A DNA stretch of 62,256 nucleotides, counting the filler, from Dugesia japonica (lineage: Eukaryota), in the NCBI GenBank assembly GCA_001938525.1. It is 6 parts of 6 records of this genome, joined end to end, with 100 filler letters (N's around TTAATTAATTAA, not from the genome) between each part and the next. Parts side by side here need not be neighbours in the genome. Positions count along the whole stretch, not along the records: positions 19,586 to 33,401 come from MQRL01645486.1; 5 more parts are not named here. One strand, given 5' to 3'. Below, piece after piece: positions 1,057-46,949 of the stretch. Within the stretch, counting starts at the first letter, position 1. Each line of letters begins with the position of its first letter. The position numbers and the translations under genes are program-made. The notes under the pieces were generated by a model. The model saw only the letters and a program-made list of their open reading frames with translations. It was not told the origin of the DNA and made no database searches.

Positions 1057-1376
1057 TAAAAAGCCTAAAAAATATTACCGCATAAAAAGCCTGAAAAATT
1101 TTCCCAACTAAATACAGAGGGAAAATGTAACACCACATTGCCGTCTAATAAGCTTGAAAAATTTTCCCAACTATATACACAGGGAAAAAGTAACACCACT
1201 TATGTAATAATTCTCGCGACAAGATTAATTACATTATGTAACGCACACAAATATGTGCCGCCGCCTATTTCAATTAGAAAAATTTAAAAACAATTATGTA
1301 ATAATCCGATTACGTATAGGGGGCGGGGGGTTTTACTGAATGTGTGCATGGTGCGGACTGCTACTATCTATCTACT
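1057..1376 (+). mobile_element. Polinton/Maverick terminal inverted repeat (element end ...CTACTATCTATCTACT)
   Basis: Highly similar copy at ~33570-33937, and both stop abruptly at CTACTATCTATCTACT (reverse complement AGTAGATAGATAGTAG), the AG/AGT short-repeat terminus typical of protein-primed Polintons; G-run subterminal. Confidence 0.75.
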
Positions 1377-3411
1377 TTTATACAAGGTGATGAAATTGTA
1401 ATTGATCATAATCACTGGAATGGTCATTTTAGAGGATATTCACATAAAGAATGTAATCAACAAGACAAGTCAATTAAAAATTATTTTGTTCCAGTTTATG
1501 CACACAATGCAGCAAAATTTGATAACCACTTTGTTTTTACCGAATTGTGTAAATTACATCCTTCTGAATTAAAAAATCTAATTCAGTTGTCTACAGATGT
1601 TTACATTTCATTTTTATTTTTACATTTTAAATTTCTAGATTCATACAGAATGTGTTCTGGTCATTCTGTAGAAGAAATGGGAATAGATTTAAGTATATCA
1701 AAAAATCACAAATATTTATCTTTACACAATTTACAACCAAAAAAAGGATTTTATCCATACAGTTACATTTCTGGAACTTGGTCAGAAATAGAAGAAAAAA
1801 TGTTAAATTACACTCCAGATATTAATCACTTTTTTAATTCTCTAAAACAACAACACATGACACAAGCAGATTATGAAATATTTAAAAATGAATATTCCAA
1901 ATTTAATAATCTATTGGAATATACATTATACTACATGAAACTAGATGTACTAATTCTTACGCATGTCTTTGAAAATTTCAAACAAGTATCAATAAATAGA
2001 AATGGAATAGATCCAACATATTGTTATTCTGCTCCAGGATTAACATGGGAAATGGGAATGAAGCCATCAAATATAGAATTAAAATTTCCCAAAGAATATA
2101 ATTATGATATATATCTAACCATTGAACAAGGACTACGTGGAGGTTATTCTAGTGTATGTGGTAATAAACATGTAGTGGCTGATGAACATCACACTATAAA
2201 ATGTCTAGATGAAAATGGTTTATATTCTGCATGCATGACTCAAAGATTACCATTTGGTCAAATGTGTTGGGCAAATGATTTATTATATCAAAAGACAACT
2301 AACGATTTTATAATAATAAAACATGAAAAAATTTATACAGATTATATTTACATGTTAGATTTACATTATCCCGATTCAATAAAAGAAAAAACAAAATATT
2401 ATCCACTAGGATTAGACAAACAAATTGTAAATTATAATCAACTATCAGATTATCAAAAGAAATTATTAGGGACTAGGAAACAAAATAAATATCCAAAATT
2501 AATCATGAATCAATTAGATAAAAAAAATTATGTATTACTAGGCACAGTATTAGATTTCTATCTTAAACAAGGAATGCAATTAGTGAAAGTGCACAAGAAA
2601 ATTATTATAAAAACTAAACACTGGCTTAAAGATTATATTGAATCAAATATTAAAAGTAGAAATATTGCTAAAGATAATAAAGATAATTTTCACAACAGTT
2701 TCTTTAAATTATTAAATAATGCATTTTATGGCAAAACTCTAGAAAATGTACGTAATCGTGAAAACTTACACTTGGCTACATCTGAAAGAATGATTAAAAA
2801 TTCTGCTTCAAAACCGGCATTCAAATCTTCAATTATAATTACTGACCAAGTTGCTTTGATTAAAAATTACAATTCATCAATCATGTATAATAAATTTCCC
2901 TACATTGGTTTCTTTGTTTTGGAATATGCAAAATTGATCATGTACAAGTTTGTATATCATGACATGGAAACTTTGATTCTAGGACAATACAAAATCCATT
3001 ATTCAGATACACATTCTCTAATGATGGAATTTATTCATCCTGATCAAACATGGAAGGAATTTAAAATTAAAATTCAACATTTATTTGGGGAAAATCTATT
3101 TCAAATGAAGGAAGAATTTCCAACTGAAGTAATTACTGAAGCCTTTTTCATCAAGGCAAAATCTTATTGTGTAGTAAAGGAAAAAGAACACACCAGACAC
3201 AAGGGAGTAAGTAAAACAAATCTCTTGATTAGTTTACATTATAAAAATGTCTTGCTAAATAATCCAAGGAATAAATTATTCTATAAATTCTAAATTACAT
3301 GTAGTAAAGAAAACTAAATAAGTGAAAAAAGCATTAACTCCTTTTGATGATAAAAGATACATTTTAAGTGATGGTATTACAACTTTACCATATGGTTATT
3401 ATAAAAATTAA
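1377..3411 (+). pseudogene. Polinton/adintovirus protein-primed DNA polymerase B (5'-truncated, frameshifted near the C-terminus)
   Basis: ORF 1344-3293: DHNHWNGHFRGYSHKECN (EndoVII-like), ExoII YAHNAAKFD, FKFLDSY, KGFYPY, ExoIII YYMKLDV, motif A LDENGLYSACM, motif B KLLNNAFYGK, motif C YSDTHSL (D>H), KAKSY; C-terminus continues in another frame 3301-3411 KKALTPFDDKRYILSDGITTLPYGY*. Confidence 0.93.
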
Positions 3412-15592: not shown

Positions 15593-16111
15593 ATGGAATG
15601 CCTCAGCCAAATTCCTTACACGTCCGTTATTGGATTTATATCTGTAATGATAGGATGTGCAGTAACCGGTGCTACGCTATATGATTCTATTAATCGAACG
15701 GATGAATTATTAACGAAATATTTTTTTAAAATCAATTTTCTGGGAACAGCACTTATCACCTTTACAGGAATGTCTGTAGTGTTGGTAATGATCTGTGTCT
15801 TTGTTCTAATTTTTGCATTTATTGGTACATTGGCTACTAGAAACAAAGTTTATCACAGATCACGATGCATTTTGGGAGGACGAAAAACTGCAGCTTTTGT
15901 AAGAAGTGTTGATCACAATGCTAATTTATTTCTGCAATTCAGTTGATGTGCGTCTTATTTATAGCGAACATTGTGTGGATAGGAGTGATGTGTTTGCTAA
16001 TGGTTCCAGTTTTAGCATGGTTGATGCTAAGTAGTACATGCTTCAATGAGATCTCACAGCATCAAAAGTCGGTGAAACAATTTTCATATAATTTCAGCTT
16101 GAATAATTATG
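15593..16111 (+). CDS. Myelin proteolipid family (M6/GPM6/PLP-like) membrane protein, exons 15593-15898 and 15943-16111
   Basis: CLSQIPYTSVIGFISVMIGC (cf. CLGGIPYASLIATIL), GTLATRNKVY..CILGGRKTAAF, hydrophobic TM segments; 44-nt GTAAGA..GCTAAT..TTCAG phase-0 intron; GTAAG donor at 16112; downstream exons not identified. Confidence 0.85.
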
Positions 16112-16127
16112 GTAAGAATAAACTTCT

Positions 16128-17450
16128 TATAAATACTACTTATAAATATTCATAAATATTCATAAATATTATTCATAAATATTATTCATGAATATTATTC
16201 ATAAATATTCATAAATATTATTCATAAATATTATTCATAAATATTATTCATGAATATTCATAAATATTATTCATAAATATTATTCATGAATATTCATAAA
16301 TATTATTCATAAATATTNNNNNNNNNNNNNNNNNNNNNNNNNNNNNNNNNNNNNNNNNNNNNNNNNNNNNNNNNNNNNNNNNNNNNNNNNNNNNNNNNNN
16401 NNNNNNNNNNNNNNNNNNNNNNNNNNNNNNNNNNNNNNNNNNNNNNNNNNNNNNNNNNNNNNNNNNNNNNNNNNNNNNNNNNNNNNNNNNNNNNNNNNNN
16501 NNNNNNNNNNNNNNNNNNNAATATTATTCATGAATATTATTCATAAATATTCATAAATATTATTCATAAATATTATTCATAAATATTATTCATAAATATT
16601 CATTATATTATTCATAAATATTCATTATATTATTCATAAATATTATTTATGAATAATATTTATTATTTATATATTTATTATTTATTAATTATTATTTAAT
16701 TAATTATTTAATTAATTATTTAATTAATTATTTAATTAATTATTTATTTATTATTTATATATTAATGAATAATATTTATGAATAATATTTATGAATAATA
16801 TTTATGAATATTTATGAATAATATTTATGAGTAATATTTATGAATAATATTCATGAATAATACTACTCATAAATACTACTCATAAATACTACTCATAAAT
16901 ACTATTCATAAATACTATTCATAAATACTACTCATAAATACTATTCATAAATACTATTCATGAATTCTAGTAAATACTACTTATAAATACTACTCAAATA
17001 CTACTCATAAATACTATTAATAAATACTACTCATAAATACTACTCATAAATACTACTCATAAATACTACTCATAAATACTATTCATAAATACTACTCATA
17101 AATACTACTAATAAATACTACTTATAAATACTACTCATAAATACTACTCATAAATACTACTCATAAATACTACTCATAAATACTACTCATGAATACTACT
17201 CATAAATACTACTCATAAATACTACTCATNNNNNNNNNNNNNNAATACTACTCATAAATACTACTCATAAATACTACTCATAAATACTACTCATAAATAC
17301 TACTCATAAATACTACTCATAAATACTATTCATAAATACTACTCATAAATACTATTCATAAATACTACTCATAAATACTACTGATAAATACTACTTATAA
17401 ATACTACTCATAAATACTATTCATAAATAATATTCATAAATACTACTTAC
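16128..17450. repeat. 13-bp satellite: (ATAAATATTATTC)n, inverted block, then (ATAAATACTACTC)n
   Basis: Directly visible tandem units. Confidence 0.95.
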
Positions 17451-19585: not shown

Positions 19586-20260
19586 TTTGCCGGGTCTGGT
19601 TGTTTTCCTTGATCTGATATTAAATGGCCCAAATATGTCACTTGATTTTTCGCACATTCACACTTTGTAGGTTTCACTCTAAGGTTCCACAATCTTTGTC
19701 TCACAAATATATTTCGTAAATCCTTTAGGTGCTCCTGGAATGTTGTTGAGAATATCAATAAGTCGTCAATATATACCATACTCTGTGGTATCCCGTGTGT
19801 CACAAAATTCATCGTTTGCTGAAATGATGCCGGAGCATTTGTTAATCCAAACGGCATCCTCACAAATTGATACAAATCCTTTCCTGCTGAAAAGGCTGTC
19901 TTCTCTTTGTCTGTCTCTTCTATTTTGATCTGCCAATATCCACTCCGTCAATCTAATGTTGTGAAAACTTTTGCATTACACAATAACATCAACATCTCAT
20001 TGAAATCCGGTAACGGGTATGTATCCTTTTTTGTCTTAGCATTTAATTGTCGATAATCAATACGAAATCTCGCAGATCCATCTTTCGACTTGGAATTGCC
20101 ATGGAAAACAACTGGGTTCAATTACTTTACTCTTGAGCATCTAGTCAATTTTCTCATCACAAATTCCAATATTTACTTCTGCTTGTTTATAGGTTTTCAG
20201 TTTCGCCGGCGTTTCGTCTGTCAAGATAATCGCATGCTTCATTATGGAACCTGTTCCTAG
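19586..20260 (-). pseudogene. Gypsy-type reverse transcriptase
   Basis: DGSARFRIDYRQLN, DTYPLPDF, FTTLD, MPFGLTNAPASFQ, VYIDDLLIFS, VKPTKC, VTYLGHLIS. Confidence 0.92.
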
Positions 20261-20610
20261 TTCGTTATCAGTCCACGCAAATATATATCTGAATTCCTCT
20301 AGTAATGCTAGTAATTGCCTTTTCTTTGATATCGTCAGTAGTGGTGATTCAATTTAAATGTTCAATCTACCTCTTCTCTTTTTGGATCTAAATCGATTTC
20401 CATTCATTTCGCTATTTCGCCTTTAAGTACATCCATTAATTTCTCTTTATTATCATCAACTGTCTCGTCTATTTCGTCCATTGGCGTTAATTTTACAATT
20501 TTTGAGGTGGATATATCGTAATATCTTTTTCCATCATATTTAATACATTTACTGGTACTTTACCAGCTTCCAGTATTTTCGTTTTGAGAACCCTTCATGA
20601 GGTTCAAACA

Positions 20611-21110
20611 TCATTTGTCCTTCCTAATCTGCATCTGTTTTTGCCATATATAGAATACCTGACTCCTCCTTGGTATTAAGATTTTTTTATTCGTATACAC
20701 TTCATTTTCTTTTGTATGTAGGTTCTCTCTAGATCCGGTAATTTGTAGTGTGGTCATATCTAACACTGCATTCTTCATTATCAATCGTATCAAATCTGTT
20801 CTAATTATGCATTTTTCGCTCATTTTCATTATTACCATTTCTTGCATCACAGGTATGTCTTGGAATTCTACCTCGCATTTTAGCTTTCCAATTATATTTA
20901 GCTTACCTCCGTCTGCCACCACGACTTCCGTTTTTGAAGGTGTGATATACGGCCATTTTAACGTTGTCACTAAATCACAATGTAGTACTGATATTATTGC
21001 ACCCGTATTCAATAAAGCTGATATTTTCCGTCCATCAACTGTTACATCTATCATTACTCTCGACCCCACATTAGAACTGTTGTAGTATAAGTATTCTTTC
21101 TTAATTGGTC
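20611..21110 (-). pseudogene. Retropepsin aspartic protease 2 (catalytic D>N)
   Basis: VTVDGRKISALLNTGAIISVL ... VVADGGKLNIIG ... CIIRTDLI. Confidence 0.88.
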
Positions 21111-21239
21111 GTTCAAGTTCACTCACTATAAGACTNNNNNNNNNNNNNNNNNNNNNNNNNNNNNNNNNNNNNNNNNNNNNNNNNNNNNNNNNNNNNNNNN
21201 NNNNNNNNNNNNNNNNNNNNNNNNNNNNNNNNNNNNNNT

Positions 21240-21420
21240 TCATTTTCGCATGTTCCAATAGTATGTCCTGTTTCTCCGCAATTAAAACACTGATGTATAG
21301 CTTTCATACAACGCTCTGTTGTATGATTCATTAAATTACATTTTTCACATCGCTTAGTAAGTTTATTATTTTACCAACAATAATCTGATTGATGGTTAAT
21401 CTTATCACAATGTATACATC
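21240..21420 (-). pseudogene. Three CCHC zinc knuckles (nucleocapsid-like)
   Basis: CIHCDKINHQSDYC, CEKCNLMNHTTERC, CFNCGETGHTIGTC, in the same frame as ORF 21449-21733. Confidence 0.88.
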
Positions 21421-21448
21421 TTGGATGTCTGAACTGAATTTGACTCCT

Positions 21449-21765
21449 TCAATTACTACTAAATTGATCCAAATCTATTTGTCCATCTGGAAATACTTTT
21501 GGCATTATGTATAACCCAGTAATACATTCAACCATGATATTATCCATTATCGTCATTGCGTGCATGAATCGTCCTCGGGACGTTAGTACTAGACAATCTA
21601 TTTCTCCGACGGATTCTATTGCTTCGCCAGTTATCATTATTAGTTCATCTGATGTTTTTCGTCTTTTTAATTTATCTACTTCATATAACACCTTGAAATT
21701 TATTATCGAGCTACTTGCTCCTGTGTCTATCATAAAATCTAAGATTTGACCATTTATTGTTAATC
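21449..21765 (-). pseudogene. Retropepsin aspartic protease 1
   Basis: LTINGQILDFMIDTGASSSII ... MITGEAIESVG ... CITGLYIM. Confidence 0.88.
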
Positions 21766-21857: not shown

Positions 21858-22451
21858 CTATTGTTGTCGTTTTTCCTGTTCCACCACTTTTCTTGACAAT
21901 TCATCATACACTCCAAATTCGTCTGTTTGATTTTTATTTTCGTAATAGGCTCCTTGCCATTGTGATGCAGGCGGTATACCTTTTGACTGATTCATTAACC
22001 ATTGATTATATGCTGATGCCGATGCTCCTTCCATTATTTCTTGCAATTCTTCGTATACTTCTTCATCAATGACCGGGTTATATTCCTTTTTCTCGTGATA
22101 TGCATCGGTCCATAGTTGCGCTTGTTGTACGTTTCTCGTCTGTTCTCTTACTCTTTGATTATACTCTGGGGTTGACTCTCGAATCTTCGGCCGATTATTG
22201 TTTGGTCTATCACTGTCATCGCTACTACTATATTGCCTTCTCCGCGGTTTGAATACATCAAATATCGTTGTCTTCCTTTCTTTCCGTTTTCTCATATCTT
22301 TACATATTGCAGGAATTTGATTGATTATCTGTTCATTCGTTCCTCTAATTTGGCTCATATATCTCAGTAATCTTCTTGTGTCATGCAGATTTTTTGAATG
22401 ACTACTTAATACTACTGATTTTGCCCAAGCCGGAAACAATCCCATCATCAT
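21858..22451 (-). CDS. Unknown hydrophilic ORF after the env TM (cytoplasmic tail/linker)
   Basis: 197 aa ORF, basic/Ser-rich; directly follows hydrophobic env C-terminus. Confidence 0.5.
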   Translation of the reverse strand: MMMGLFPAWAKSVVLSSHSKNLHDTRRLLRYMSQIRGTNEQIINQIPAICKDMRKRKERKTTIFDVFKPRRRQYSSSDDSDRPNNNRPKIRESTPEYNQRVREQTRNVQQAQLWTDAYHEKKEYNPVIDEEVYEELQEIMEGASASAYNQWLMNQSKGIPPASQWQGAYYENKNQTDEFGVYDELSRKVVEQEKRQQ

Positions 22452-22454
22452 TGA

Positions 22455-24390
22455 CTAAGATAACTTTCTTTCTTTCTTATATAAATCGAAACACGCTAGT
22501 AATTGTGTTAATATNNNNNNNNNNNNNNNNNNNNNNNNNNNNNNNNNNNNNNNNNNNNNNNNNNACTTTAACTATTTGTACTATGAATATTATTCCTAAC
22601 AATCCCGCTATTGCTTGTCCAAAAACTATTTATTGACCCCACATTTTCTTCATCACATTTACTGTTGCCATCTGAAAATGATCTGGTGATAATAGTAATT
22701 CGTAGTTTGGTCTACCGTCTGATGTGAATCCTCCTCCGGCTATTTGTACAAGATTGGATAGAATTTGGATCCTCTTTACAGGAAATAACATATGTTCTCG
22801 TGCTCTATCTAAGTCGTCTTGCTGGTAAATTCCACCTTCGGCTACATTTAACGGTGTAAATTTTGCTCCACCTTTTAATTGCAATCGTGAAAAATTTCTG
22901 ACTCCTGTTACTGGAAGTCTTCTCGGAAATCGTACCCATTTATTGTTATGTAGTTTAAAGTAATGTCCAAATAGGTTTGAACAACTTATCATGTTCGGGA
23001 CAAATCCTCTTGGTGATATCACTCTGGTGATTGACTGCACAAATCGTCTTTCTCTGTTATATATGATTTCCACCTCATTATAACATTAATTATGTTCTTT
23101 TGGTGCCAACGTTGCGTTCACCTTTTTGCATCGATATATGAACATTACCTCTCCCACAATTCGTGCAAGTTGTCCTTCTTCTATCGGTAATAATGGTGAT
23201 GCATTACCTGGATTTGTAGTTGCTGTTGCCAATTTCGTCTTTAGTATTTCGTTATTTAATGTACAATCGTTCCACACTAGATCATGATATATTTTCTCTG
23301 TTGAGGCTTGTGTTAAATGAAACAAATAATCCACTTTATTATTAATATGGAGATGTACCTTCGTATCCTCTGATGTGATTCCTGCTTTAGCTCTCTCTAA
23401 TCTTGTTTTTGATACCCATAAACTTTTGTAATTCGTTTTGTACACTAATTCTTCACATTTCGATTTTGTTTTCTTTCGTATTAATCGTATCATATCGTTT
23501 TTGCCAGTTGACATTAAGACTACTGGGGTTTCTACCCAGTGTATTTCACCTGTTTTTGGTTTCATTGCTTCATCCATCTTACCTTCTGGTGGTATCGTTT
23601 CCTTTTCATCTACTTCAATAACTTTTTTACCTTGATATTCGTCAAACACGGTTTCTTTTAGAAATGACATTGCACATTCTTGATGATTAACATTATATAC
23701 TAAAGTTGACATTCCAGTATCACATGAAATATCTGACGCTTTACACATAGTATACATTTTCATCAATTGTGTNNNNNNNNNNNNNNNNNNNNNNNNTTCT
23801 TTTAATTCTACTCGATAACTTTCTATCGCTACCACATAACTGGTGACTACCCCCTTTACAGTATAGGTGACTCGAGTACATGTTCCATGTTTATCCGATA
23901 TGCTTCCTGCTGCGAATATTCTTGTTTGCATGGTCTGTCCACTTTTAGCATTAACAATTTTTCCTTCAGCTACTCGTATCTTTCCGGTTATAAATCCTTC
24001 TTCTCATTGCTGTCCTGTTAGATAAATCTATCTCACTTCTTGTCCGGTTTCGATAATTGCTGTATAGCTTCTTGTCCCACAGTAATACACAAAAACTGTC
24101 ATGGTCGCTCTACATTCTCTCACCTTTATCTTGTAATAATCTGATTCCTGATACACAAATATGGTATTGCCTTTTGAAATATTCTTTGTTCTAATTTCAA
24201 TGGATTTGCTTATGGACATTCATCCACGTCTACTAGTGAGTACACTGTTTCTCTAATATCCATTTTATCGCAATCATATGCTTTTANNNNNNNNNNNNNN
24301 NNNNNNNNNNNNNNNNNNNNNNNNNNNNNNNNNNNNCTCGGCCCATCAGAAGCATTATCATTAATACCATTAACATTGATTGTATGCCGT
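22455..24390 (-). pseudogene. Envelope glycoprotein, chuvirus-G/gB-like class III fusion protein
   Basis: Signal-like MLMVLMIMLLMG; KAYDCDKMDIRETVYSLVDVDEC; VYQESDYYKIKVRECRATMTVFVYYCGTRSY; AGSISDKHGTC; NNKVDYLFH; DCTLNNEILKTKL; GQLARIVGEVMFIYRCKKV; RFVQSITRVISPRG..ISC; GGIYQQDDL; TM FGQAIAGLLGIIFIV. Confidence 0.85.
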
Positions 24391-25330
24391 TTGTACTCGT
24401 ATTCGTTCTTGTGCTGCTGTTAGATTCCGTTCCTATTTCATCTATATAATCTTTCATTAATAATCGCGCTCTTTCTGCTAAATTTCGTTGTGGATTCGTT
24501 TCTGGTTTTAATTTTTCTATCAACACTGACCATCCTCCGATTTTCAAAATAAGTGGTTCAATTCTATCATTTATTATTCCAACGATTGGCAACATGTTTA
24601 TTTTTACTTTTGCACTTGGATTATGATGTACTAGCGCCACTTGTGTCTGTTTACATAGGTATGCCAATGCCGTTGCACTTTTCGACGCGCTTGGACATTC
24701 TCCCAATGTTCTTTCGACTGCATATTCCACTTTATCTCGTTTTCTCAGTCCTGTACATTCGAATGCTGGTAGTTTCTGTATTATAGATTCCAATATTGCT
24801 GCAATTTGTTTACACTCCACCGATATTTCTGTATTTCCAATCCACATTTTTAACTCCGGATATAATATTAGTAATACTTGATGCATCCTTTTTTCCGTTG
24901 ATAGTTNTGATAGTTCACAATTCTCCATGATCTCTTGTGATACTGTTACTAATTGTTCGTTTTGTGTCGGCTTTCGACGTGTTGCTCCTTTTGTCGTAAT
25001 AGATCCTCTTGGTCGTCCACGCGCCTTTTGTTCCATTTCTGTCTCTACATCGACCATTATTCTTTGATATATTTCGTGATCTGTTGTTTCTTCTTGATTA
25101 TCCGTAGTTTCGATTGCATTATCTGTTGTCGTTATTTCCTCTTCGAATTCTACTGGTGGACATATATTTTCTCCTCCAAATTCGTATTCTGATGTAGTTG
25201 GCATCCTTGAGTTTTGCTCGAATTCCATTAACGGTATTCTCTCCTTTATATCTCCAATTGTTTCGTATGCCAGACCGGTTATCTTAGTTTCGTATCCTTT
25301 CGGATCTATTATTTGAAAGCGGTATTGTCG
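24284..25330 (-). CDS. Accessory ORF: Ubl-like half domain, acidic linker, AT-hook, Bcl-2-like domain, then env signal peptide
   Basis: YRFQIIDPKGYETKITGLAYETIGDIKERIP (in frame upstream of ATG 25228); KARGRPRG; INDRIEPLILKIGGWSVLIEKL (BH2-like). Confidence 0.6.
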   Translation of the reverse strand, partial: RQYRFQIIDPKGYETKITGLAYETIGDIKERIPLMEFEQNSRMPTTSEYEFGGENICPPVEFEEEITTTDNAIETTDNQEETTDHEIYQRIMVDVETEMEQKARGRPRGSITTKGATRRKPTQNEQLVTVSQEIMENCELSXLSTEKRMHQVLLILYPELKMWIGNTEISVECKQIAAILESIIQKLPAFECTGLRKRDKVEYAVERTLGECPSASKSATALAYLCKQTQVALVHHNPSAKVKINMLPIVGIINDRIEPLILKIGGWSVLIEKLKPETNPQRNLAERARLLMKDYIDEIGTESNSSTRTNTSTNGIQSMLMVLMIMLLMGRXXXXXXXXXXXXXXXXX

Positions 25331-25396
25331 AGGTTCAATTTCATCAGTTTCTAGATCTCGTCATTTTTTAATGGTTGCTCTGAACTGTGATGGCCT

Positions 25397-26956
25397 TCAC
25401 TCACACTCTTCCTTAAATCGTGATATCTCAAATATCAGTTCTCTTAGTTCGAATATTGATAAATCACTATTCAGAATCTGTTTGGCTAATTCTTGAACTT
25501 GGTCCCTTGGAATATTTGTTTCATTAATTAATGATATAAATTGTTTCACTATTTCTGATGCATAGTCGTTTGTTTTCTTTATATGTCTTATCATTGCTAA
25601 CCTCTCTACTGATCCGTATAACTCCTGATTGGATCGGTATTGACAACTTAATGTTTTTCTTGACAGTAACATTGTCACTTTGCGTTTTGCTTCGACACGT
25701 CTTTTTACTGTTTCCATATTTTGCCATATTAATTTGTCTCGTTCATTTATTCTGGCTACATCAAAAAGTTTGATATTTGCTAATATTATGAGATCTCGAA
25801 GTATATTTTTGGAGTTTCTCTCTTTTGCATGACCAAATGCCTCTGCTATATCCTTTAATTTAACTACTTGATTTCTTAGTTGTGGTGGTTCATTTGATCT
25901 TGGTCTACCTCTCGATCGTCTCGCAGTTTCTTCATTAGAAGTGCCTGGCTCATCTGGATATCTCGGCTTCTATGATTTTGTATTTTTAACTATATTTTTT
26001 ATTTGAACCGGTTGACTTGCATTTTCTATTTAAGCTGGTTGGTTATTGTTTCTTACCTGGGCTTGTTGATTATCGGCTGGAGAATCTAGTTCTTAAAAGA
26101 TTTTCTTATGTGGGACATATCTCTTTTCTTTTTATCTTTTATTTCTTCTACTATATCTTGATCAAAAAGATCTAATATTTTATTCATCGCTTCCTGCTGT
26201 CCTTCGGATAATCTATTTATTATCTTGACTTTTATATGATTATCACCTTCAGTAATAATTCCATATTCCATCAATCTTTTATTTTCAATTAGCTCCTGAT
26301 TATAGAAATATAATTTTATTTCATCATCCTCTTCTAATGTTATCAGCCATTTTGCTCTTATTAGTTTTCGTAATTTTTCGGTTTTTGTAAGCGTATGTGT
26401 GCTTATTATTACAGCTTTTATATTGCAGCTACCTGGTTCCGTAGAAGCTTGTATTATTATAGGTTTCTGCCACTCTACATTTTTATGGCAAATTCACTGT
26501 ATTTCTTTATTAATTCATTCATTATTCTATGAATTTCGTCAAATCCTATCCTGTCTTTCACTTTTACTAGTGGAATTATTAATTTCTTTAATTCATGATA
26601 ATTTATTGGGTATTCGATTATATCTTTAAATATTGTATTAATCTAAGTTCATTTATATTCTCTTTGGCCATTTTATGTCTTAAATTTCCCATTATCGATT
26701 TTTGTTTACTCTCATCTACTTGCTCATCTAAATCTATGTTAACTGATTCATAAGTATTTATTTCATANTCATTGGTCTCTTGTTGCCTCTCTTGCATTCT
26801 CTCACATCTGATTCGTAATTCTTGTAATTCTGCTCTCATATTTTCGTATTCATTATTTTGAGCTACTTTAATAACGTTTACACCTTTTGTCTCAGGTCCA
26901 AATGATAATTCTTTCTTTATTATACTTATGGGATCTCGCTGCTGATTCAGACGCAT
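25397..26956 (-). pseudogene. Decayed accessory ORF(s) between gag and env, incl. AT-hook
   Basis: Co-directional ORF fragments 26618-26956, 26086-26274, 25397-25717; RRSRGRPRS at ~25897-25922. Confidence 0.55.
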
Positions 26957-27998
26957 TCTGGCTAAGTGCCCATATTTGTTACAGTTATAACATTTTATCT
27001 GTTCTCTGTTATTTACTTGATCTCTCCCTTCATTTGAATAATTACTGTTAGTTCTGTCAGTATAGTTCCTCCTTGGACTTTTATTATATCTATAGTTTGA
27101 ATCAGATTCTCTTTTAGGGCTATATCCTCTATTATTAAATCTTGAACTCGAGTTTCTGTAACCTCGAATTATTATTTCAATTTCCCCTTGGACTGGAATT
27201 TCTATTCATGTAACCCTTCTCTGGGTATCCTTAAATTCGGACTTGAATTTTTATTATATTTATTTTTGTTATCATTATAATTATTTTTTCTATTATCTTG
27301 ATGATTTTTATATGCTCGTTTCATATTACCCCATTGCGTAGGTTCTCAATCATCTGACATGTTTGTTTCTATAACATAAATTTGTTTATCCTTAGGTTTA
27401 TGATTATAATTTGACTCAATCCTTCGGGCTTTCGTCATCAACTCTTCAATATTTTTATATTCTACTGTTATCAGAGCAGATTTTATATAGCTATGTATTC
27501 CACTTATGAATCGGTCCTCTATAACGTGTTCAATATCATCGCCTTCTCCCAAGGCCATTTTAGCTAATTTTTTTAAATCGTATAAATATTCACCTACATT
27601 TTTTGTAGCTCCTTGCATCCTATTTCGAAATTTTTGTATACATATCCTTTCTAACTTTGTGGGACTATTATAAGCTTTCTGAGCTCTTTTATTAGTTCAT
27701 TAAAATTCTTGGGTGGATTTATTAAATTTTTATAACTTTGTAATGCAAACCCTTTTAAATACAATGGTACTCTTTTTACCAATTCATCATTTGTCCAATT
27801 GCACGCTATTACACAGATGGACATTTCTTCAAAATATTCGTCAAATTCTTCGGGTTTCCCGGAGTACTTTTTTAATGGTAAATAATTCATTTTATTTCGA
27901 TCACCAAAGCCAAACATAGGCGCTATATTAAAACCGTTTTCTTGTTTATTTACATTGTCGTTACCTTTTTGAGCCATAATTATATCTCTGCTTCTCAA
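26945..27998 (-). pseudogene. Retrotransposon gag (capsid + CCHC)
   Basis: LKKYSGKPEEFDEYF..CNWT..LYLKGFALQSY; QGATKNVGEYLYDLKKLA..DRFISGI; CYNCNKYGHLAR near 26955-26990. Confidence 0.9.
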
Positions 27999-28436
27999 TT
28001 TATATACAATGTTATCGTTTGTATCAATTGTTTATATTATTTGTTATATTCACTTTATTTTTAAATATTCGTATTAATGTGTCTCTTTTATATACTTGTA
28101 AGAATATTAAATACAAAACTGTCAAAAGAATCCTTATATAATTTAAGATCGTTATCTTATTTAAAATATTTAGTCACAGGGTATCACTTTAAATTTTAAA
28201 TTCTTAAATATTTTCACAAATTTAACTATATTGTAAATTTCTTTTCAACTCGTAAATCAAAAATTTTCTAAATTATATTTCAATCAGGTTTCGTTTCAGT
28301 TTAAAATCAAATTTTATTTCAACTTAAAGTCAGTTTTCATTTTATTTCTCAAAAGCAAATTTTATTTTTAAGTTTCAATTTTAGTTTTGAACACTTGTAA
28401 ATTTGAATATATATATTATATTTTACTTGAATTGGC

Positions 28437-29454: not shown

Positions 29455-32180
29455 TTTCCTCAACATTTATATTGGAAATCATTCTTTTTTATTTTGTGTG
29501 GTTCTACACGAACTACCATCTACTCCCCAACTTGGAAAATTTTCTGTCTACGCTTTTCATTTTCAAAAATTGCCATTTTATTAGCTGCTCCATTTAAATT
29601 TTGTCTAACTTTCTCTAAGTTAACTGTTTTGTTTTAAAAAATGGTTTTCGTCTTTGCATGCAAATTTATACGCATTCCAAAAATAATCTCTAATGATGAC
29701 AATTTTGTCGACTCTTGAATAGTAGTGTTTATACTGAACTCACATCTTGGAGGTAATGCATCCCAGTTTTTCTCATTACAATTTTCTTTTAGTGAAGNNN
29801 NNNNNATATCTCTTATCGTACGAATCATTCTTTCTACCAGCCCATTCGATTGGTATTGTTACGGAGAGCTGAACTCTTGTTTAATATTAAACTTCGCTAA
29901 CTTATCTGACATGTATTTACTCTCAAACACTCTTCCTCTGTCGGTTGATATGCTTTTCAGTTTGCCAAAACGATATATCCATTTGTTCAAAATTATTCCG
30001 ATAATTGTTTCTTCATTTATCTTTGATACCGCTGATATATTTACCAGTTTGCTAAACCAATCTATAATCACCACCATATACTTTTGTCTGATGCCACTGT
30101 TTCCATATGTGCAATATCTACCACAATTTGTTCCAAAATATCTTGACACTTTCTAAGTAATATAAAATATTTTATTCTTCCTTGATCAATTCTCCTTTTT
30201 GCACAAATCAGATATTTATTCAAGTTATTTTTAATAGTCTCTATTAGGTATTTTTAAAAAAGTAAATTTTTAATTGTTTTTAAATGTAAAATTGCAAATT
30301 ATGAAATTGAAATTTTAAATATTAATTTAGAAATTAGTAGTCTAAATNNNNNNNNNTTATTAAATGAATTTTAGATATAAATACGTAATGTAAAACTTTT
30401 TATTCAAATTTATAATTGGAATTTTTTTTAATTTAGATATAAAATTTAATTGAAAATTTGGAAAATTATTAATAAATTTGAATTNNNNNNNNNNNNNNNN
30501 NNNNNNNNNTTTATTTTTAAATAAATTTGTATTTTATATAATTTAAATAATTTAATAAAATGTTTTAAAATAATTTGTTTAAATTCATTATTATTTTGAA
30601 AACATAATTGGGAAAGGCAAGTGTTGGATGAAGCATTCAAAAAGCAAGAAGAATTTCAAAGAAGAATTATATGTATTTTAAATAAAGTATTGAATCAAAA
30701 GTCTTGTTTTGGTCGATTTAAATGAAGAAAACAAATAAAGCTAACAGTCTCCATCATTGCAGGCCAGTAATAATTATTCTCTAAATATGAAAATATCTTC
30801 TTTTTTCTTAAATGACATAATTCTTCATGAATATATCTGATCATTTCGTTGGTTATACTCGTTGACACTATTATCAAATTTTATTTTCTCTTTCTACGAC
30901 TAACAATTCATCATCAATTTTCAATTCGCAATTAAGTTTATCCAAATAGTTTCTCTGAATGATCTTTTCTGCTAGTCGTACTTTGTTTTGCATTATTACA
31001 ATTATTCTTTGTATTATGGATCATCTTTCCTTGCTTTCCTAATTTTTTCTACGATGTTTTCATTCTGTTGTATGCTGTTATTATATTTTACTCTTGATTT
31101 TTCTTTCTTGGCATCCAAATGTACAGTTTGGCATTGTGAGCATAAACTCTGATTTAACTGCGATAATTCATCAGCATTGTTGTGTTCTCGCTCTTTGCGA
31201 TATTTTAACTTAAAATCATATTCTCCCAGATTTGCAATCCACGTCTTATCGTTTTTTTGTGTTATTCATAAATATTAATGCTTTGTAATCTGTTCTTGCT
31301 AAGAATTTCTTTCCATATAGATATTGTTTGAAATGTACAACATATTCATGTAATGCGAGCAATTTGTTTCTTGTAACACAGAAGCCCTTTTCATGAGCAG
31401 TAAGGTGTCTGAATCCATATGCTATCACCAATTCTTCTCTATTTTCTGTTCTTTGTATTAATATTACACCGATAGCTCCGAAACTTGCATCAGTATCTAA
31501 GATAAACATTCTATTTTCTCTTGGATAATCTAGAATTGATACATTACATAATTTGTCTTTTAAGTTTTCAAACTTTTTTCTGCATGCTTCTGCTTACATC
31601 AAAGTTTTGTCACATCCTGAAATAGCTTGATATAAAAGTGTTGCAATTCTTGGCATAATCCTTGATAAAACGCCTGAAGTAATTCGTTAAACCAAGAAAA
31701 TACCTGAGTTTAGATGAACATTTTGGTTCTTGAGCAATTTTTATCACCCCAATCTTAGTTTTGTTTGTTTTTATTCCTTTTAGGCTTATTGTGTGTCCCA
31801 AAAAGACCAGTTTTTTTGGTGAAATTTACATTTTTCTGGATTTATCCTCAAACCCGATTCTGTTAAAAACTTTCAAAATTTCATTATGATCTACGACTGT
31901 TCTTCCATACACTAATATATTATCTAGATATACGATGACACCTTTAAAAATCAACCCTGTTAACATATAATGCATCAAATTTTGAAATGTTGCCGGTGCC
32001 GTTGATAATCCGAATGGAATCTGATTGAACTTAAACTGACCCTTTTTTGTACTAAACGCTGTTACATCTCTCGAGCTTACTGATAATTTTACATGGTAGT
32101 AAGCTTGTCCTAGATCAATTGAAGAAAATATTTTTGCACCTGCTAAGCAATCCAATAATAACCGGATGCCTGGCATCATA
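29455..32180 (-). pseudogene. Gypsy pol (RT-RNaseH-integrase), interrupted at ~30245-30720
   Basis: SSIDLGQAYYH, IPFGLSTAPATFQ, VYLDNIL; FILDTDASFGAIG..ARTDYKAL; HEELCH..YYWP; IIDWFSK..ISTDRGRVFES. Confidence 0.9.
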
Positions 32181-32657
32181 AATGAAACTTTTTATTTATT
32201 ATTATAATTATCATTATTATAATTATATATAAGTAGATTTATTAGGATTTATCAGATTTTTATCGTAATTTAAGATTTAAAAAAAATTATTTTTAACCAT
32301 TAAGAAAGGATTAAAATTATTAAAAATACGGGAAATTACTGAATATTAAATAGAATCAAAGTCTACTCAAATTAATTCAAGATATTGATTCGGGAGATTT
32401 GTTCAACTCAAGAATACTACATGACGAAATATTTCCAGATGTGTTGGTGGAGTTTTAATGTAAGAATTAAATGATAATAATGTAGTAAGTTATAATATGT
32501 TTACTAAGCATTTATAATAATAATATTATATATTTAAATAATTGATTAAATTGATGTTGATAATATTGTGTAATTGTGAAAATTGTTTGTATTTTCTATG
32601 ATTTGTTGAGATATAAATTTATAGCAAATGAAATATTTGAGTTATATGTGGAAATTT

Positions 32658-33937: not shown

Positions 33938-36900
33938 CAGTGACACTACATGATGCGCTGGCTGCATTGCAAATTGTAGCAGATAGGCCATCCGAACGAA
34001 TATTCAAAGTAGAAGGACAGATAGAGGAAACTATACCACGGATATCAGATTTCATACCCAATACACAATCAATGATGAAAACTCTGACCCCAGAGCAGGA
34101 ACGAAATAAACGGAATGATAGATCTGATTAGCCCAGAGGAAATAGTAGAGGATTTAATGCACCACGGAATAATTGGCAAAATAATCGAGACATCCAATGT
34201 AATACCTGCGAAAGAAGGGGACACATAGCTCGCGACTGTAGAAGTAGAGATAATAATAGCAATAATACAACAATCGATTTTGTCCCTATTGCAAGAAGAC
34301 CAACCACAATATAGAGACGTATTTTTTGAAAAATCTGACGGTCTGTTATAAGTGTAACAGAAGAGTAGATATAGCAAAAGAATGTCCAAACGGAAATCAG
34401 CCAAGTTACAATAGAAACCCAAATGCAAATTTGTATAATCTAATGCAAGAGAATGAGAGATTGAGACAATGAGTAAATCAAAACAAGAGACAAGTCAATA
34501 TAGTTCATCAAAGTACTTTCGACAATGTGTACCACAAGGTGCAACAGGAAAATGACTGGCTCAAGTGGCAAAACCAAGATTTGCAAGTACAGCAGGAGAG
34601 ACTAGCCAAAAGGAACTTATTAAATGAACCCCACAAGAATCAGTGTAATATGATCAGGACACACAGGCAAATTTATAACCAACATGATAAAACAACGGAA
34701 ATTACTGGAATGGAAGATACTCGAAAATGAATAGAGACTACGTCACCAGAATTTGAGTGGACTGAAAAGATCATCTATAAAACAATAAAAAAAAATCAGT
34801 AAAAAATCAGTAATGAACCAGTTACTTCGCTTTTACCAGCACCCACAAGCACATGCAAAAGTAAAAGCTAACTGACAGAAAACAATATCAAACTATATTG
34901 CCGAATTATACCAAGAAACTCAGCTAGAGGATTATGAGTTCGAAATTCAGTATGTATGGCATGGCAAAATAGACGTCATCCCAAAACGGCTAAAGTTACC
35001 ACTTAAAGGAATGACAGTACGACATTTGAAAGAAGCCATCAACGAGATAAAATGGAGTGAAGTAGATGGTATCAAGGGTATGACGGTAAACTCGTTTCTC
35101 GAATCACCACCATTTGACGTTCAGCAACGATGGAATGGAAAGTGGAATGAGCACAAATTGCAATTAGATAATGTAGGAATCAATATCCTGCCAGATAATC
35201 AGAATCTAATATATTACGGAGCACGACCTCATGAAACTACCATAATTAAATTTATAAATTGGGATTCGGTATTCCGATCACAGACAGTAACTCGGGAAAT
35301 AGAAACAGATGAGCTATATCATAATCTCGAAGAAACATTCTTAAAGGAAATCGTTCCCCTCCAGTCTCAAACCTACATGCGGAAAAGATTGGGGACAGTA
35401 AGGCTAATGGACTATCCTGAATTGGAACGAAATGAAGCGTCATGACTATCCCAAGCCCGAATCGATGAAATACTGATAGCCGCTCAGAAACTCCATGCTA
35501 CGATAAAGCAAGAAGTATACTTAAAATTGACAAATCAATTGGTCGAATTATTGAAGTTTTACAACTGATCACCGAATGCGAAAGCGATTGGACAGAATGG
35601 TTACCAGTGCATTACGAGTAGGTAATATCCAACCTGGGATTATCAGATTACCAAGTATGGTTATATAACCCTGAAGGAAATATGAAGCTGACGCTCACGG
35701 GATCGATGGTAGAAGATCTAGAAACTGCATTTAATCAAGCAGGTTCTCCAAGTATAACCGATAAATATGTATGTACTCCAAGTGCTATAATAGACTTCAA
35801 CGCCAGAAAAAGACATCTATACGATTTTGGAGTAAACCTTGGAGAGGACATTGAAATTGTAGTATTAGACAAACATTCGGGTATCGACTACGACATCTGG
35901 ATAACGAAAACCGGAAGATCAGCGTTAGAAATCATGGGGGAAATGGAGTATTTATATAAACAGAATGTGGAACCCATTAAAATAAAGATACTTTCCACGG
36001 TCTTCGGGTAGAAAGATGAACTGACAACGGAAGAAAGGAAACAGCTACTAATGACGCGTAACGATTTCCTTAGATAACGATTAGAGAGAAGAGAGGGTAA
36101 ATGCAACATGATAAGAATGCAACAGATGCCATCGAGAGAGGTAATAGCAATGTGTATGGTGGAATAAATGGTTAACCGGGTACAGATGGAGAAGGAGAAC
36201 TTACCTCGAGAAACCTATTAGATGATAATGAATAGAATCTATGACATATATGATGGGCTGGAAATACCGGAGGAAATTGAGAACCAATGGTTCGTGATTA
36301 GACAGAAGTATGCCGAAGAGATACTGACAACTACTAAAATTCGGGACTATCAATTAAATTTGAATATAGGTATAAATGAACAAGAACTGACTAAATACAG
36401 CCGATTAAAACCACAAGGTATAACCATGATGGATCTAATGGATGCTGTTACCGACAAGTGGCGTTAACAGGGACTAAATATGGTACCTCTGTTCATAAAT
36501 GACAAATTAGTCGAGACAAAAGACGAGGATAAACACATATTCCAATGCCATGCAAAGCCCGGAGAAATATGCGAGTTAGATGTAGAGGAGGGATCACCAA
36601 CCAACCAGACACCCGGTCTCGAAGAACGAATGGAAGAGATAACAGAATTATATGTGACTGAGGTATTGTCTGGCATAAAGGAACAAGTAAAAGAAAATCA
36701 AAAAATACAGAATATCGATAATCTGCCCATAATTACCACAAAATCAGTGGAATTTCCAGAAGGGACACCAACAATACGCGATATTCGAATGAACTATATG
36801 AAACCGATAACGGAGGAATCTGCCACATTTCATGCTATCAACAATCTCTTACGAGTAACCCGAGAAACTCAACAAGTAGTAAACATCAAGGTATATTGGA

Positions 36901-37744
36901 AAATGATGAATAACCTACGGGATTTAGCAATATATGGACAACTCAGCTTATGGGCTCGAGCACAATGGTGGAAAGAGAAAACCTTATATGAAGAGGAAGT
37001 ACAAAATACATCTACAATATCCGACTATTCTATCAGAATTAGCCTCCTTAATAAAGAGGGAATCATAAAAAAGGTAGATATGATAACGCTGGAAGGGTTA
37101 ACGATCAACCATATCATAAAACCAATCAAGAAATGGCTATCAAGATATGGCTATCGCTTAAATCCTATAAAATACAGGCAGGAGCAACAATGATAATATT
37201 AGCCAAGAAAGAGGACCACGTCTTTCTACATAATATCAAACCAGGGTAGATCACAGAAATCAAACTAACACCAAGTAAAATGACCATAGACATCCCGATA
37301 CCAAAAATGCCAGACACCGACCAACTCATATTCAATATGATGAGTTTATATCTACAAGAAATACTACCGGTAGAAAATGAACGACTGATAAACACGTATG
37401 GGGAAAACAAAGTCCAAATAAACATGGTTCGGGATAATAACCGAGGCACTCCAGATTTATCATCAGATGAAGAAGAGCAGGAGGAAGAAATCTCGGAGGA
37501 TATTGGCCAACCCCGGTTGTTACCATTTAAACATGAATTCACTGGCCCTTTCAGTTTCCCTCAGACGGAACGGATTTCAAAGATAATTTCCGATTTCTGT
37601 CATTTCCTAGAAAGGATACCTCGACCAGTGTTTTGGAAAGCATTAAAAGCAGATCAATGACCCTAGACTTGATTTTATATAAAGATCGACCCCTCTAGAT
37701 TTAATCACATAAACCAATAACGTAAAAAGGGTAGAACCCCAACA
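33938..37744 (+). mobile_element. Decayed LTR-element: gag C-terminus, long accessory ORF with ubiquitin-like domains, LTR end
   Basis: CNTCERRGHIARDC at ~34198-34240; co-directional ORF fragments to 37660; ends in CCCCAACA LTR terminus; no pol seen. Confidence 0.7.
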
Positions 37745-43890: not shown

Positions 43891-44221
43891 CCAACAGTCC
43901 AGACCGGGATGGCAAATAGGATTTTATCAAAGTACAGTGCAGTCCCGTTAACCCTATGGTTCTGCTTAACCCGCGGTTCTCCCGAATTTACACATACATA
44001 GCAATAATCCGCGATCAAAAGTACTGTTTTCAAAGAAACTTTCATCGCTAGAAACACATTTCCCTCATCTTTCCGTGCCAACTTTTTTCGTTCTTTCCTC
44101 GATATTCTAATCGGCAATTTCTTTATAGAGACATTTCAAAATGTCGCTTGATAGACGACGTTCACCATGCAATAATTTCCGATCACAGATCGAGACGGCC
44201 ATCTTAAAGTCTAGGTATTTA

Positions 44222-45470
44222 GTCAGGAGATTTTTTATTATGTGAATTTTTATTATGAGATTTTTTTATCAGGAGATTTTTTATCAGGAGATTTTTTATC
44301 TGGAGATTTTTTATCTGGAGATTTTTTATTAGATTTTTTATAAGGAGATTTTTTATCTGGAGATTTTTTATTAGANNNNNNNNNNNNNNNNNNNNNNNNN
44401 NNNNNNNNNNNNNNNNNNNNNNNNNNNNNNNNNGAGATTTTTTTATCAGGAGATTTTTTGTCAGATATTTTATTAGGAGAATTTTTATCAGGAGATTTTT
44501 TATTAGATTTTTTATAAGGAGATTTTTTATAAGGAGATTTTTTATAAGGAGATTTTTTATCAGGAGATTTTTTATCAGGAGATTTTTTATCTGGAGATTT
44601 TTTATTAGATTTTTTATAAGGAGATTTTTTATCTGGAGATTTTTTATTAGATTTTTTATAAGGAGATTTTTTATAAGGAGATTTTTTATTAGATTTTTTA
44701 TAAGGAGATTTTTTATAAGGAGATTTTTTATCAGGAGATTTTTTATCAGGAGATTTTTTATCAGATTTTTTATGAGGAGATTTTTTATCAGGAGATTTTT
44801 TATCTGGAGATTTTTTATTAGATTTTTTATCAGGAGATTTTTTATCAGGAGATTTTTTATCAGGAGATTTTTTATCAGGAGATTTTTTATCAGATTTTTT
44901 ATCAGGAGATTTTTTATCAGGAGATTTTTTATCAGATTTTTTATGAGGAGATTTTTTATCAGATTTTTTATGAGATTTTTTATGAGATTTTTTATGAGAT
45001 TTTTTATGAGAAGATTTTTTATCAGGAGATTTTTTATCAGATTTTTAATTAGATTTTTTATCAAGAGATTATTTATTAGGAGATTTTTTGTCAGATTTTT
45101 TTTGGCAGGAGATTTTTTATCGGGAGATTTTTTATTAGATTTTTTATTAGATTTTTTATCAGATTTTTTATCAGGAGATTTTTTATTAGATTTTTTATTA
45201 GATTTTTTATCAGATTTTTTATCAGGAAATTTTTTATCAGGAGATTTTTTATGAGGAGAATTTTTATTAGATTTTTTATAAGATTTTTTATTAGATTTTT
45301 TATTAGATTTTTTGCCAGGAGATTTTTTATGAGGAGAATTTTTATTAGGAGATTTTTTATTAGATTTTTTATTAGATTTTTTATCAGGAGATTTTTTATC
45401 AGGAGATTTTTTATTAGGAGATTTTTTATTGAGATTTTTTGTGAGGAGAAGTTTTATCAGATTTTTTTAA
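44222..45470. repeat. Minisatellite of 12/15-bp units (AGGAGATTTTTTATC / AGATTTTTTATT)
   Basis: Directly visible; gives (IKNLL)n and (RRFFI)n ORFs. Confidence 0.97.
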
Positions 45471-46004
45471 ATATTTTTTATTAATTTTTCAAAAGGAGAA
45501 TTTTTCTTATGGAATTTCATCCTCCTCCTGGAATATTTGACTGCGAACTCAAAAAAACGAATTATTTAAATGAAAATTTTTTATTTTTAACAGTTTAATT
45601 TAAAATTTTCAACTGAATGCAAAATTGNAATGAAATCAAAGAAAACAATTTATAGCTTATTGCAAAATGTTAAACACGTCAAATGAAACATTATTTTCCT
45701 CATTGTCCACTAGCAATAACCCAATTTAACAAATAATTATCATCAGAGCTGGAGGATTGATTACTCGACAAGTTACATGTTGTCTCTGTTTGTTTTCATT
45801 TCTATTATTACACGCCAAACACGTTATTTCACTTGATTTAGCAATATTTTTACAATTTACTATTGGTTTCACATTGGATTTTAATAATTCATTCAATTTT
45901 AACTGCTATTTTATAATTTTACAATTATCAAATTAATTTCAAGAATTAATTAATAGTAAAAAACAATTCCTTAAAATTAAAATAAAACTAGCTAAGTATC
46001 TCAC

Positions 46005-46358
46005 CTTTATCAAAGAAGACATTGATTTCATTACTTCTGTGCTTTTCTGAAGAGTTCCTGCCATTCGAACCAGAGAAGCTTGATGATTTAAATTCATTAC
46101 TACAGAATTCATCTGAGCTTTTGCTGAATAGAGTCTACTAACAGATTTTCTGGCATTTATAAGCTCTTTAGCTAGAATTTTAGCTGCATCCAAATTTCCT
46201 TGTTTAGCATATTTCTTAATTTCTAATTCCTGCTGTTTCGTAGCTTTGTCAATTGAATTAATATCTCTATCCAATTTTCTTTCTTCTTTTCTTATACAAG
46301 ACTGCATTTGTCTTACTTTTTCTCGAGGATCTGTTTTTTTTTCACCAAATAACCCCAT
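46005..46358 (-). CDS. CHMP3: ESCRT-III subunit CHMP3/VPS24, first coding exon
   Basis: MGLFGEKKTDPREKVRQ..IRKEERKLDRDI..AKILAKEL..RKSVSRLYSAKAQMNSV..AGTLQKSTEVMKSMSSLIK; GTGAG donor at 46004, TTTTAG acceptor just upstream of ATG. Confidence 0.93.
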
Positions 46359-46949
46359 ATCTAAAAATATTGAAATATAATAAACATCTAAATGTTTTGT
46401 TTTTAATTTCAAATGACATTAATAATAAAGAAATGCTTTTTTAAAAGAATTTATAGATAATTTAATAAAACTAATAAAACAATTTTAAAAAATAATCTTA
46501 ATAATTTATAACCGTTTATTTATGTTTTTCAATTGAAAATTTTGACCTAATTTGAGTATTAAAACAAATATAATATTATCTGTAGTTAAAGAAGATCGTT
46601 CGATTGAATAATTGTTTTTGATTGAATAACTGTTTACCGTAAAAATATATAGAGTGTAATCATTAAATAAAAAGAAAAATTTTTAAGAAAATTTTGATCA
46701 AGTCATGGATTAATTAAAATGTTTAATTTCTTCGAAATTAAAACATTTAAATTTAATATTAAATAAAATTAATGATTTGAAAAATAATAAAACTGTATAA
46801 ATGAATACCGGAAAAGAAATGCGCATTTTGAATATGGTTTGGTTCAAGAGATTTTTGCATTAAAAATTATCTAGTTTATATATCAAAATAACAAATACTA
46901 CAGAAAACTAAATAGGATTACACATAAGTTTTTCCTTCGCTTCCCAATC

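Follow-up and report, generated by a model that had tools for sequence, protein, structure and literature searches.

In planarians, the Burro elements (Burro/GYPSM1) are giant gypsy-like long terminal repeat (LTR) retrotransposons (Grohme et al. 2018, Jurka 2007, as cited in PMC6431247). Their one open reading frame (ORF) runs from a gag that bears CCHC knuckles through a Ubi/SUMO-like domain, a BCL2-like motif, a mononegavirus-type env, a protease (PR) and a dUTPase-like domain to a reverse transcriptase (RT) (PMC6431247). The env lies in frame between BCL2 and PR, i.e., in the gag-pol interval, and resembles the fusion proteins of mononegaviruses; decaying Burro copies are mentioned in another planarian (PMC6431247). 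Here we analyze a stretch of 62,256 nucleotides from the planarian Dugesia japonica (assembly GCA_001938525.1), the whole of which we call the window; all coordinates are window positions, and the element under study and its domain lie on the minus strand. We propose that a divergent domain of the Bcl-2 fold is probably part of the gag-env-pol polyprotein, now broken, that a giant Ty3/gypsy retroelement of Burro type encodes in this window.

PMC6431247 credits Grohme et al. 2018 with noting the BCL2-like motif, in Burro-2, -3, and -4. Burro1 carries another anti-apoptotic cargo, B-IAP, a BIR-RING inhibitor of apoptosis (IAP) reported to protect planarian stem cells (Lee et al. 2026, as cited in PMC13465017). 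Among flatworms, the errantiviruses of Schmidtea are described as GAG-ENV-POL elements with an env of HSV/gB type (HSV, herpes simplex virus), cysteine class C1a (Chary & Hayashi 2026, PMC13524379). On Burro elements, PMC8532177 and PMC10175614 add PIWI control and size. As publications of 2018-2019 already report a BCL2-like motif for this element type, the novelty implied by a first-pass annotation of the window, which had proposed a retroelement-borne Bcl-2-like domain, is not supported; the element is a further, decayed example of a published kind of element and not a new phenomenon.

A probable Bcl-2-like domain in a broken polyprotein

The order of the element is gag, ubiquitin-like domain, Bcl-2-like domain, env, protease and RT, with env positioned between gag (28031-26621) and pol (protease 21763, RT 19947), all on the same strand. 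Matches of the env pieces to PF24664 extend over 24219-22567 (E 1.3e-6, 4.5e-16 and 1.3e-18). Stops and frame changes occur throughout the element and its collinear pieces are compatible with a former single ORF; this copy is probably non-functional.

AlphaFold single-sequence models of the domain are all-helical, with a pLDDT of 45.7. In Foldseek comparisons with the PDB, the Bcl-2 family occupied ranks 1-23 and 44 among the 46 rows listed for model 1 and every one of the 38 rows listed for model 2. Using VIA against 48,161 representatives, Bcl-2 folds made up 10 of the best 50 rows, and 10 of the 13 rows with at least 74 aligned residues; the proteins behind them are 8-20% identical to the domain and belong to sponge, Trichoplax, Hydra, mammals and poxviruses. 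In both alignment programs, Bcl-2 proteins rank much higher than their proportion of PDB entries would predict. The alignments end at residue 126 of model 1 and residue 134 of model 2, each opposite residue 197 of Bcl-xL; if ungapped, these ends set the Trp of a GGW in the domain on Bcl-xL 188, which we take to be the BH2 Trp, a register that agrees with Bcl-xL. The structural check that had been suggested, AlphaFold followed by Foldseek, thus returned an all-helical domain with rankings dominated by the Bcl-2 family and scores that are not significant. The rankings, the GGW register and the motif published for the corresponding position of Burro form weak but consistent evidence. We consider a divergent Bcl-2-like fold likely, and the published motif counts for as much in this judgment as the models do.

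The sequence itself was searched for the Bcl-2 homology (BH) motifs. Across all six reading frames the window has two GGW occurrences, and the one at 24538-24530 is the sole one inside a long open frame. The strict BH2 pattern, a PROSITE-style form (W-x4-GGW), has no match in the window; at the domain the first Trp fails and the remainder fits. Without this Trp, a relaxation chosen after the sequence had been seen, the pattern matches once in the whole window, at 24574-24509. When the ORF was shuffled 20,000 times it arose in 6 cases, and when all 181 stop-free stretches found in the window were shuffled it arose 0.013 times per round. The BH2 likeness therefore appears to be more than chance. 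No part of the window matches the BH1 core [NST]WGR. A loosely defined BH3 pattern (L-x3-G-D core) is likewise missing from 24400-25000, as against 65 matches elsewhere, so that the BH1 and BH3 labels given previously would follow from spacing only. A Pfam profile search with three cuts of the domain, in which the HMMER filters discard weak matches, found no family at E≤10, Bcl-2 (PF00452) included. Because the profile, BH1 and BH3 tests came out negative, the domain is not assigned by sequence to the Bcl-2 family, and 'Bcl-2-like' is the supported wording: the fold proposed at first is probably right, and family membership by profile is not borne out.

A frame that is stop-free over 24284-25360 and meets an assembly gap at 24336 holds all three peptides formerly quoted as lying just upstream of the env signal; we confirm them there at 24820-24779, 24721-24656 and 24574-24509. 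The ORF 24284-25228, treated at first as a unit, is a fragment of the broken polyprotein frame, which resumes upstream behind two stops (25397-25969). As the same frame runs on upstream and the layout is that of a polyprotein, the ORF does not represent an independent gene, and a stand-alone gene starting at 25228 was rejected. A host bcl-2 gene was rejected as well, because the domain is embedded in an element whose family has many copies. A single ambiguous base, at 24907, lies immediately ahead of the domain, the upstream linker and helical region (24905-25969) gave no Pfam match over the cut-off, and no second copy of the domain was found within the window.

The high copy number emerges from four public runs compared with 22400-28100: two DNA runs yielded 4483 and 3841 matching contigs, mostly 90-95% alike or less. 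One contig of 427 letters covers 24353-24722 with 66 differences and no gap. Of 966 variant places, 40 are listed and none of these 40 falls in the GGW codons, a figure that bears on conservation neither way. In one raw RNA run, of which about a quarter was read, 311 reads matched, none of them at least 99% alike; most lie on gag and the read depth over the domain is 0-0.1.

Anchoring, possible function and alternatives

The hydropathy maximum of the ORF (Kyte-Doolittle 3.0 over 11 residues) ends at 24341, 52 codons past the GGW Trp. Contigs in two of the four runs bridge the 50-N gap, and the length of the spacer is such that the hydrophobic segment and env stay in one frame. Judging by this anatomy, anchoring of the domain via the env signal segment is plausible.

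We propose that in intact copies the domain would probably be tethered to the membrane by the env signal segment and would probably promote survival of the host cell. The hydrophobic segment would thread env into the endoplasmic reticulum and signal peptidase would cleave behind it, a step for which we see even chances. After cleavage the domain would be cytosolic and anchored at its C-terminus, and the protease of the element would free its N-terminus. A cytosolic domain with a C-terminal anchor is the normal topology of Bcl-2 proteins. By analogy, and more tentatively, the domain may then bind host BH3 helices or Bak/Bax-type proteins and dampen host cell death; divergent poxviral Bcl-2 proteins bind such partners without canonical BH motifs. 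Such an activity would complement the IAP cargo reported for Burro1. That Burro-type elements encode a functional Bcl-2 working without the BH1 NWGR, with the env signal sequence as its tail anchor, is in our view unlikely; if true, each env protein made would leave behind one membrane-anchored death regulator, a second anti-apoptotic arm beside Burro1 B-IAP.

It is conceivable, though we would not favor it, that the domain has the Bcl-2 fold and does not block apoptosis, serving instead as a membrane-side scaffold (matrix-like or env-leader, in particle assembly) or as an inhibitor of innate signaling, as some non-apoptotic poxviral Bcl-2-fold proteins do. NWGR lines the BH3-binding groove, and both it and the BH3 Gly-Asp are absent from the domain, which moreover has gag on one side and env on the other within a single polyprotein and adjoins the signal segment. 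On the other hand, its fold neighbors include poxviral proteins solved with BH3 peptides (e.g., DPV022 with Bak BH3) that have little sequence in common with cellular Bcl-2, and an element of this kind, Burro1, has a working anti-apoptotic IAP cargo according to PMC13465017.

Several results weigh against a Bcl-2-like death regulator. Modulation of apoptosis is made less likely by the absent BH1 and BH3 signature residues and by the decayed state of this copy. None of the rankings (Foldseek, VIA or the viral fold library) contains a significant fold score; in the viral fold library no entry stood above E 1.0, and a named v-Bcl-2-like protein came at rank 43. Searches for homologues of the domain in a 5.8-billion set (longer and near lengths), 1.84-billion representatives, the Atlas, and viral and metagenome contigs found none, and searches for env homologues were likewise blank; there was accordingly no alignment to build on, which is why both fold models are single-sequence. 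The blank sequence searches, the non-significant scores and the post hoc relaxation of the BH2 pattern would also suit a chance look-alike, an unrelated helical polyprotein domain whose GGW and helix spacing mimic Bcl-2, which we regard as improbable given the ranking of Bcl-2 proteins by two programs and the coincidence in position with the BCL2-like motifs reported in Burro (PMC6431247).

The element and its surroundings

Table 1. Features of the Burro-type element, in the order of its minus strand
Feature	Position	Strand	Basis or remark
gag fragments with CCHC knuckle, three frames	26621..28031	-	zf-CCHC E 8.4e-5
Ubiquitin-like domain (weak)	26089..26493	-	GABP-alpha Pfam E 0.0077, under cut-off
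Acidic linker and helical region, same frame, upstream	24905..25969	-	two in-frame stops near 25361-25399
Bcl-2-like helical domain (putative), about 136 aa, 6-7 predicted helices	24497..24904	-	AlphaFold models, fold rankings
Helix at about BH3 position, without Gly-Asp	24779..24820	-	predicted helix
Helix-turn-helix at BH1 position, without NWGR	24656..24721	-	sequence, predicted helices
BH2-like segment, GGW at 24538-24530	24509..24574	-	relaxed BH2 pattern; end-of-alignment register with Bcl-xL
Hydrophobic segment, likely internal env signal sequence, possible tail anchor	24341..24388	-	hydropathy peak, adjoins env N-terminal piece
Assembly gap, 50 N	24287-24336	.	separates hydrophobic segment from env
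env, Monjiviricetes/gB-type fusion glycoprotein, five pieces, likely terminal transmembrane helix	22567..24284	-	PF24664
Aspartic protease 1, DTG motif	21452..21763	-	gag-asp_proteas E 1e-6
Three CCHC-like knuckles, frame of protease 1	21239..21448	-	sequence; zf-CCHC E 4.4e-4
Aspartic protease-like domain 2, NTG in this copy, behind 103-N gap	20614..21132	-	gag-asp_proteas E 1.6e-4, under cut-off
Reverse transcriptase, broken, stops at N gap	19588..20121	-	RVT_1 E 1.1e-22

In a PDB sequence search the ubiquitin-like stretch found polyubiquitin chains at the top, a weak match with an E of 0.024 summed over repeats. The two protease domains around three knuckles (20614-21763) are either a native tandem-protease layout or the junction of two elements. 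A broken region at about 20350-20700 fits the position of the dUTPase-like domain between PR and RT; no dUTPase match was found in its part 20614-20700, which was scanned within the protease piece. Self-comparison revealed no LTR pair in the window, the element being truncated within RT, and no MATH, BIR or ankyrin regions were found in the window either.

The window (GC content 28%) holds further elements. Upstream of the gag, a separate decayed Ty3/gypsy pol lies on the minus strand at 29634-32191 (RT-like, tblastn E 4e-16; integrase rve E 3.5e-9). On the plus strand at 34000-37660, a second decayed element starts with CCHC knuckles of gag-like type, continues in long cargo frames, possibly with a ubiquitin-like stretch near 35800, and breaks off without env or GGW; four pieces of it were scanned with no Pfam match over the cut-off, and it may belong to another Burro-type family. 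A 657-residue open frame at 1320-3293 (+) encodes a protein-primed type B DNA polymerase (PF03175, E 1.5e-20), likely Polinton-like. Host sequences include an exon of a Snf7/ESCRT-III gene at 45942-46418 (-) (PF03357, E 2.6e-19), beside a 12/15-nt tandem array at about 44160-45430, and a hydrophobic host-like exon at 15593-15943 (+), by eye presumably of the myelin proteolipid/M6 type. Long inverted arms at 16100-17300 consist of AT-rich tandem arrays (10/13 nt) that are oppositely oriented.

Comparison with known systems

The window element shares with Burro the same domain order from gag-CCHC through RT. The traits used as the yardstick for Burro were one ORF of about 4,900-5,100 residues, long LTRs, MATH/BIR/ankyrin cargo and a length >30 kb, whereas the window copy is broken and ends within RT, and is likened to Burro by domain order, not by sequence identity to a named family. 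Its two proteases around three CCHC-like knuckles also differ, as they are absent from the Burro section of PMC6431247. Literature searches found no functional test of the Burro BCL2-like motif. B-IAP of Burro1 is, according to PMC13465017, a cargo against cell death borne by an element of this kind, and yet a different protein, an IAP of reported function as opposed to a Bcl-2-like domain.

The GAG-ENV-POL order is shared with the errantiviruses of Schmidtea as presented in PMC13524379. By eye, the window env resembles the six Smed rows given there, Smed_errantivirus_6 most, and is nevertheless clearly diverged from all six; the term 'Bcl' is absent from the main text and 7 supplements of that paper.

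With Bcl-xL, Bcl-2 and Mcl-1, and with poxviral M11L, DPV022 and the sheeppox protein, the domain shares an all-helical model, a similar size, the BH2-like GGW and a downstream hydrophobic segment. It differs from them in its 8-21% identity, in lacking NWGR and the BH3 Gly-Asp, in a possible anchor that lies 52 residues past the Trp and would also serve as signal sequence, and in being part of a polyprotein. The decayed copy described here adds weak structural support for a Bcl-2-like domain in Burro-type elements. Large DNA viruses typically encode mimics of Bcl-2, and a retroelement with such a mimic suggests the same host-survival strategy as theirs.
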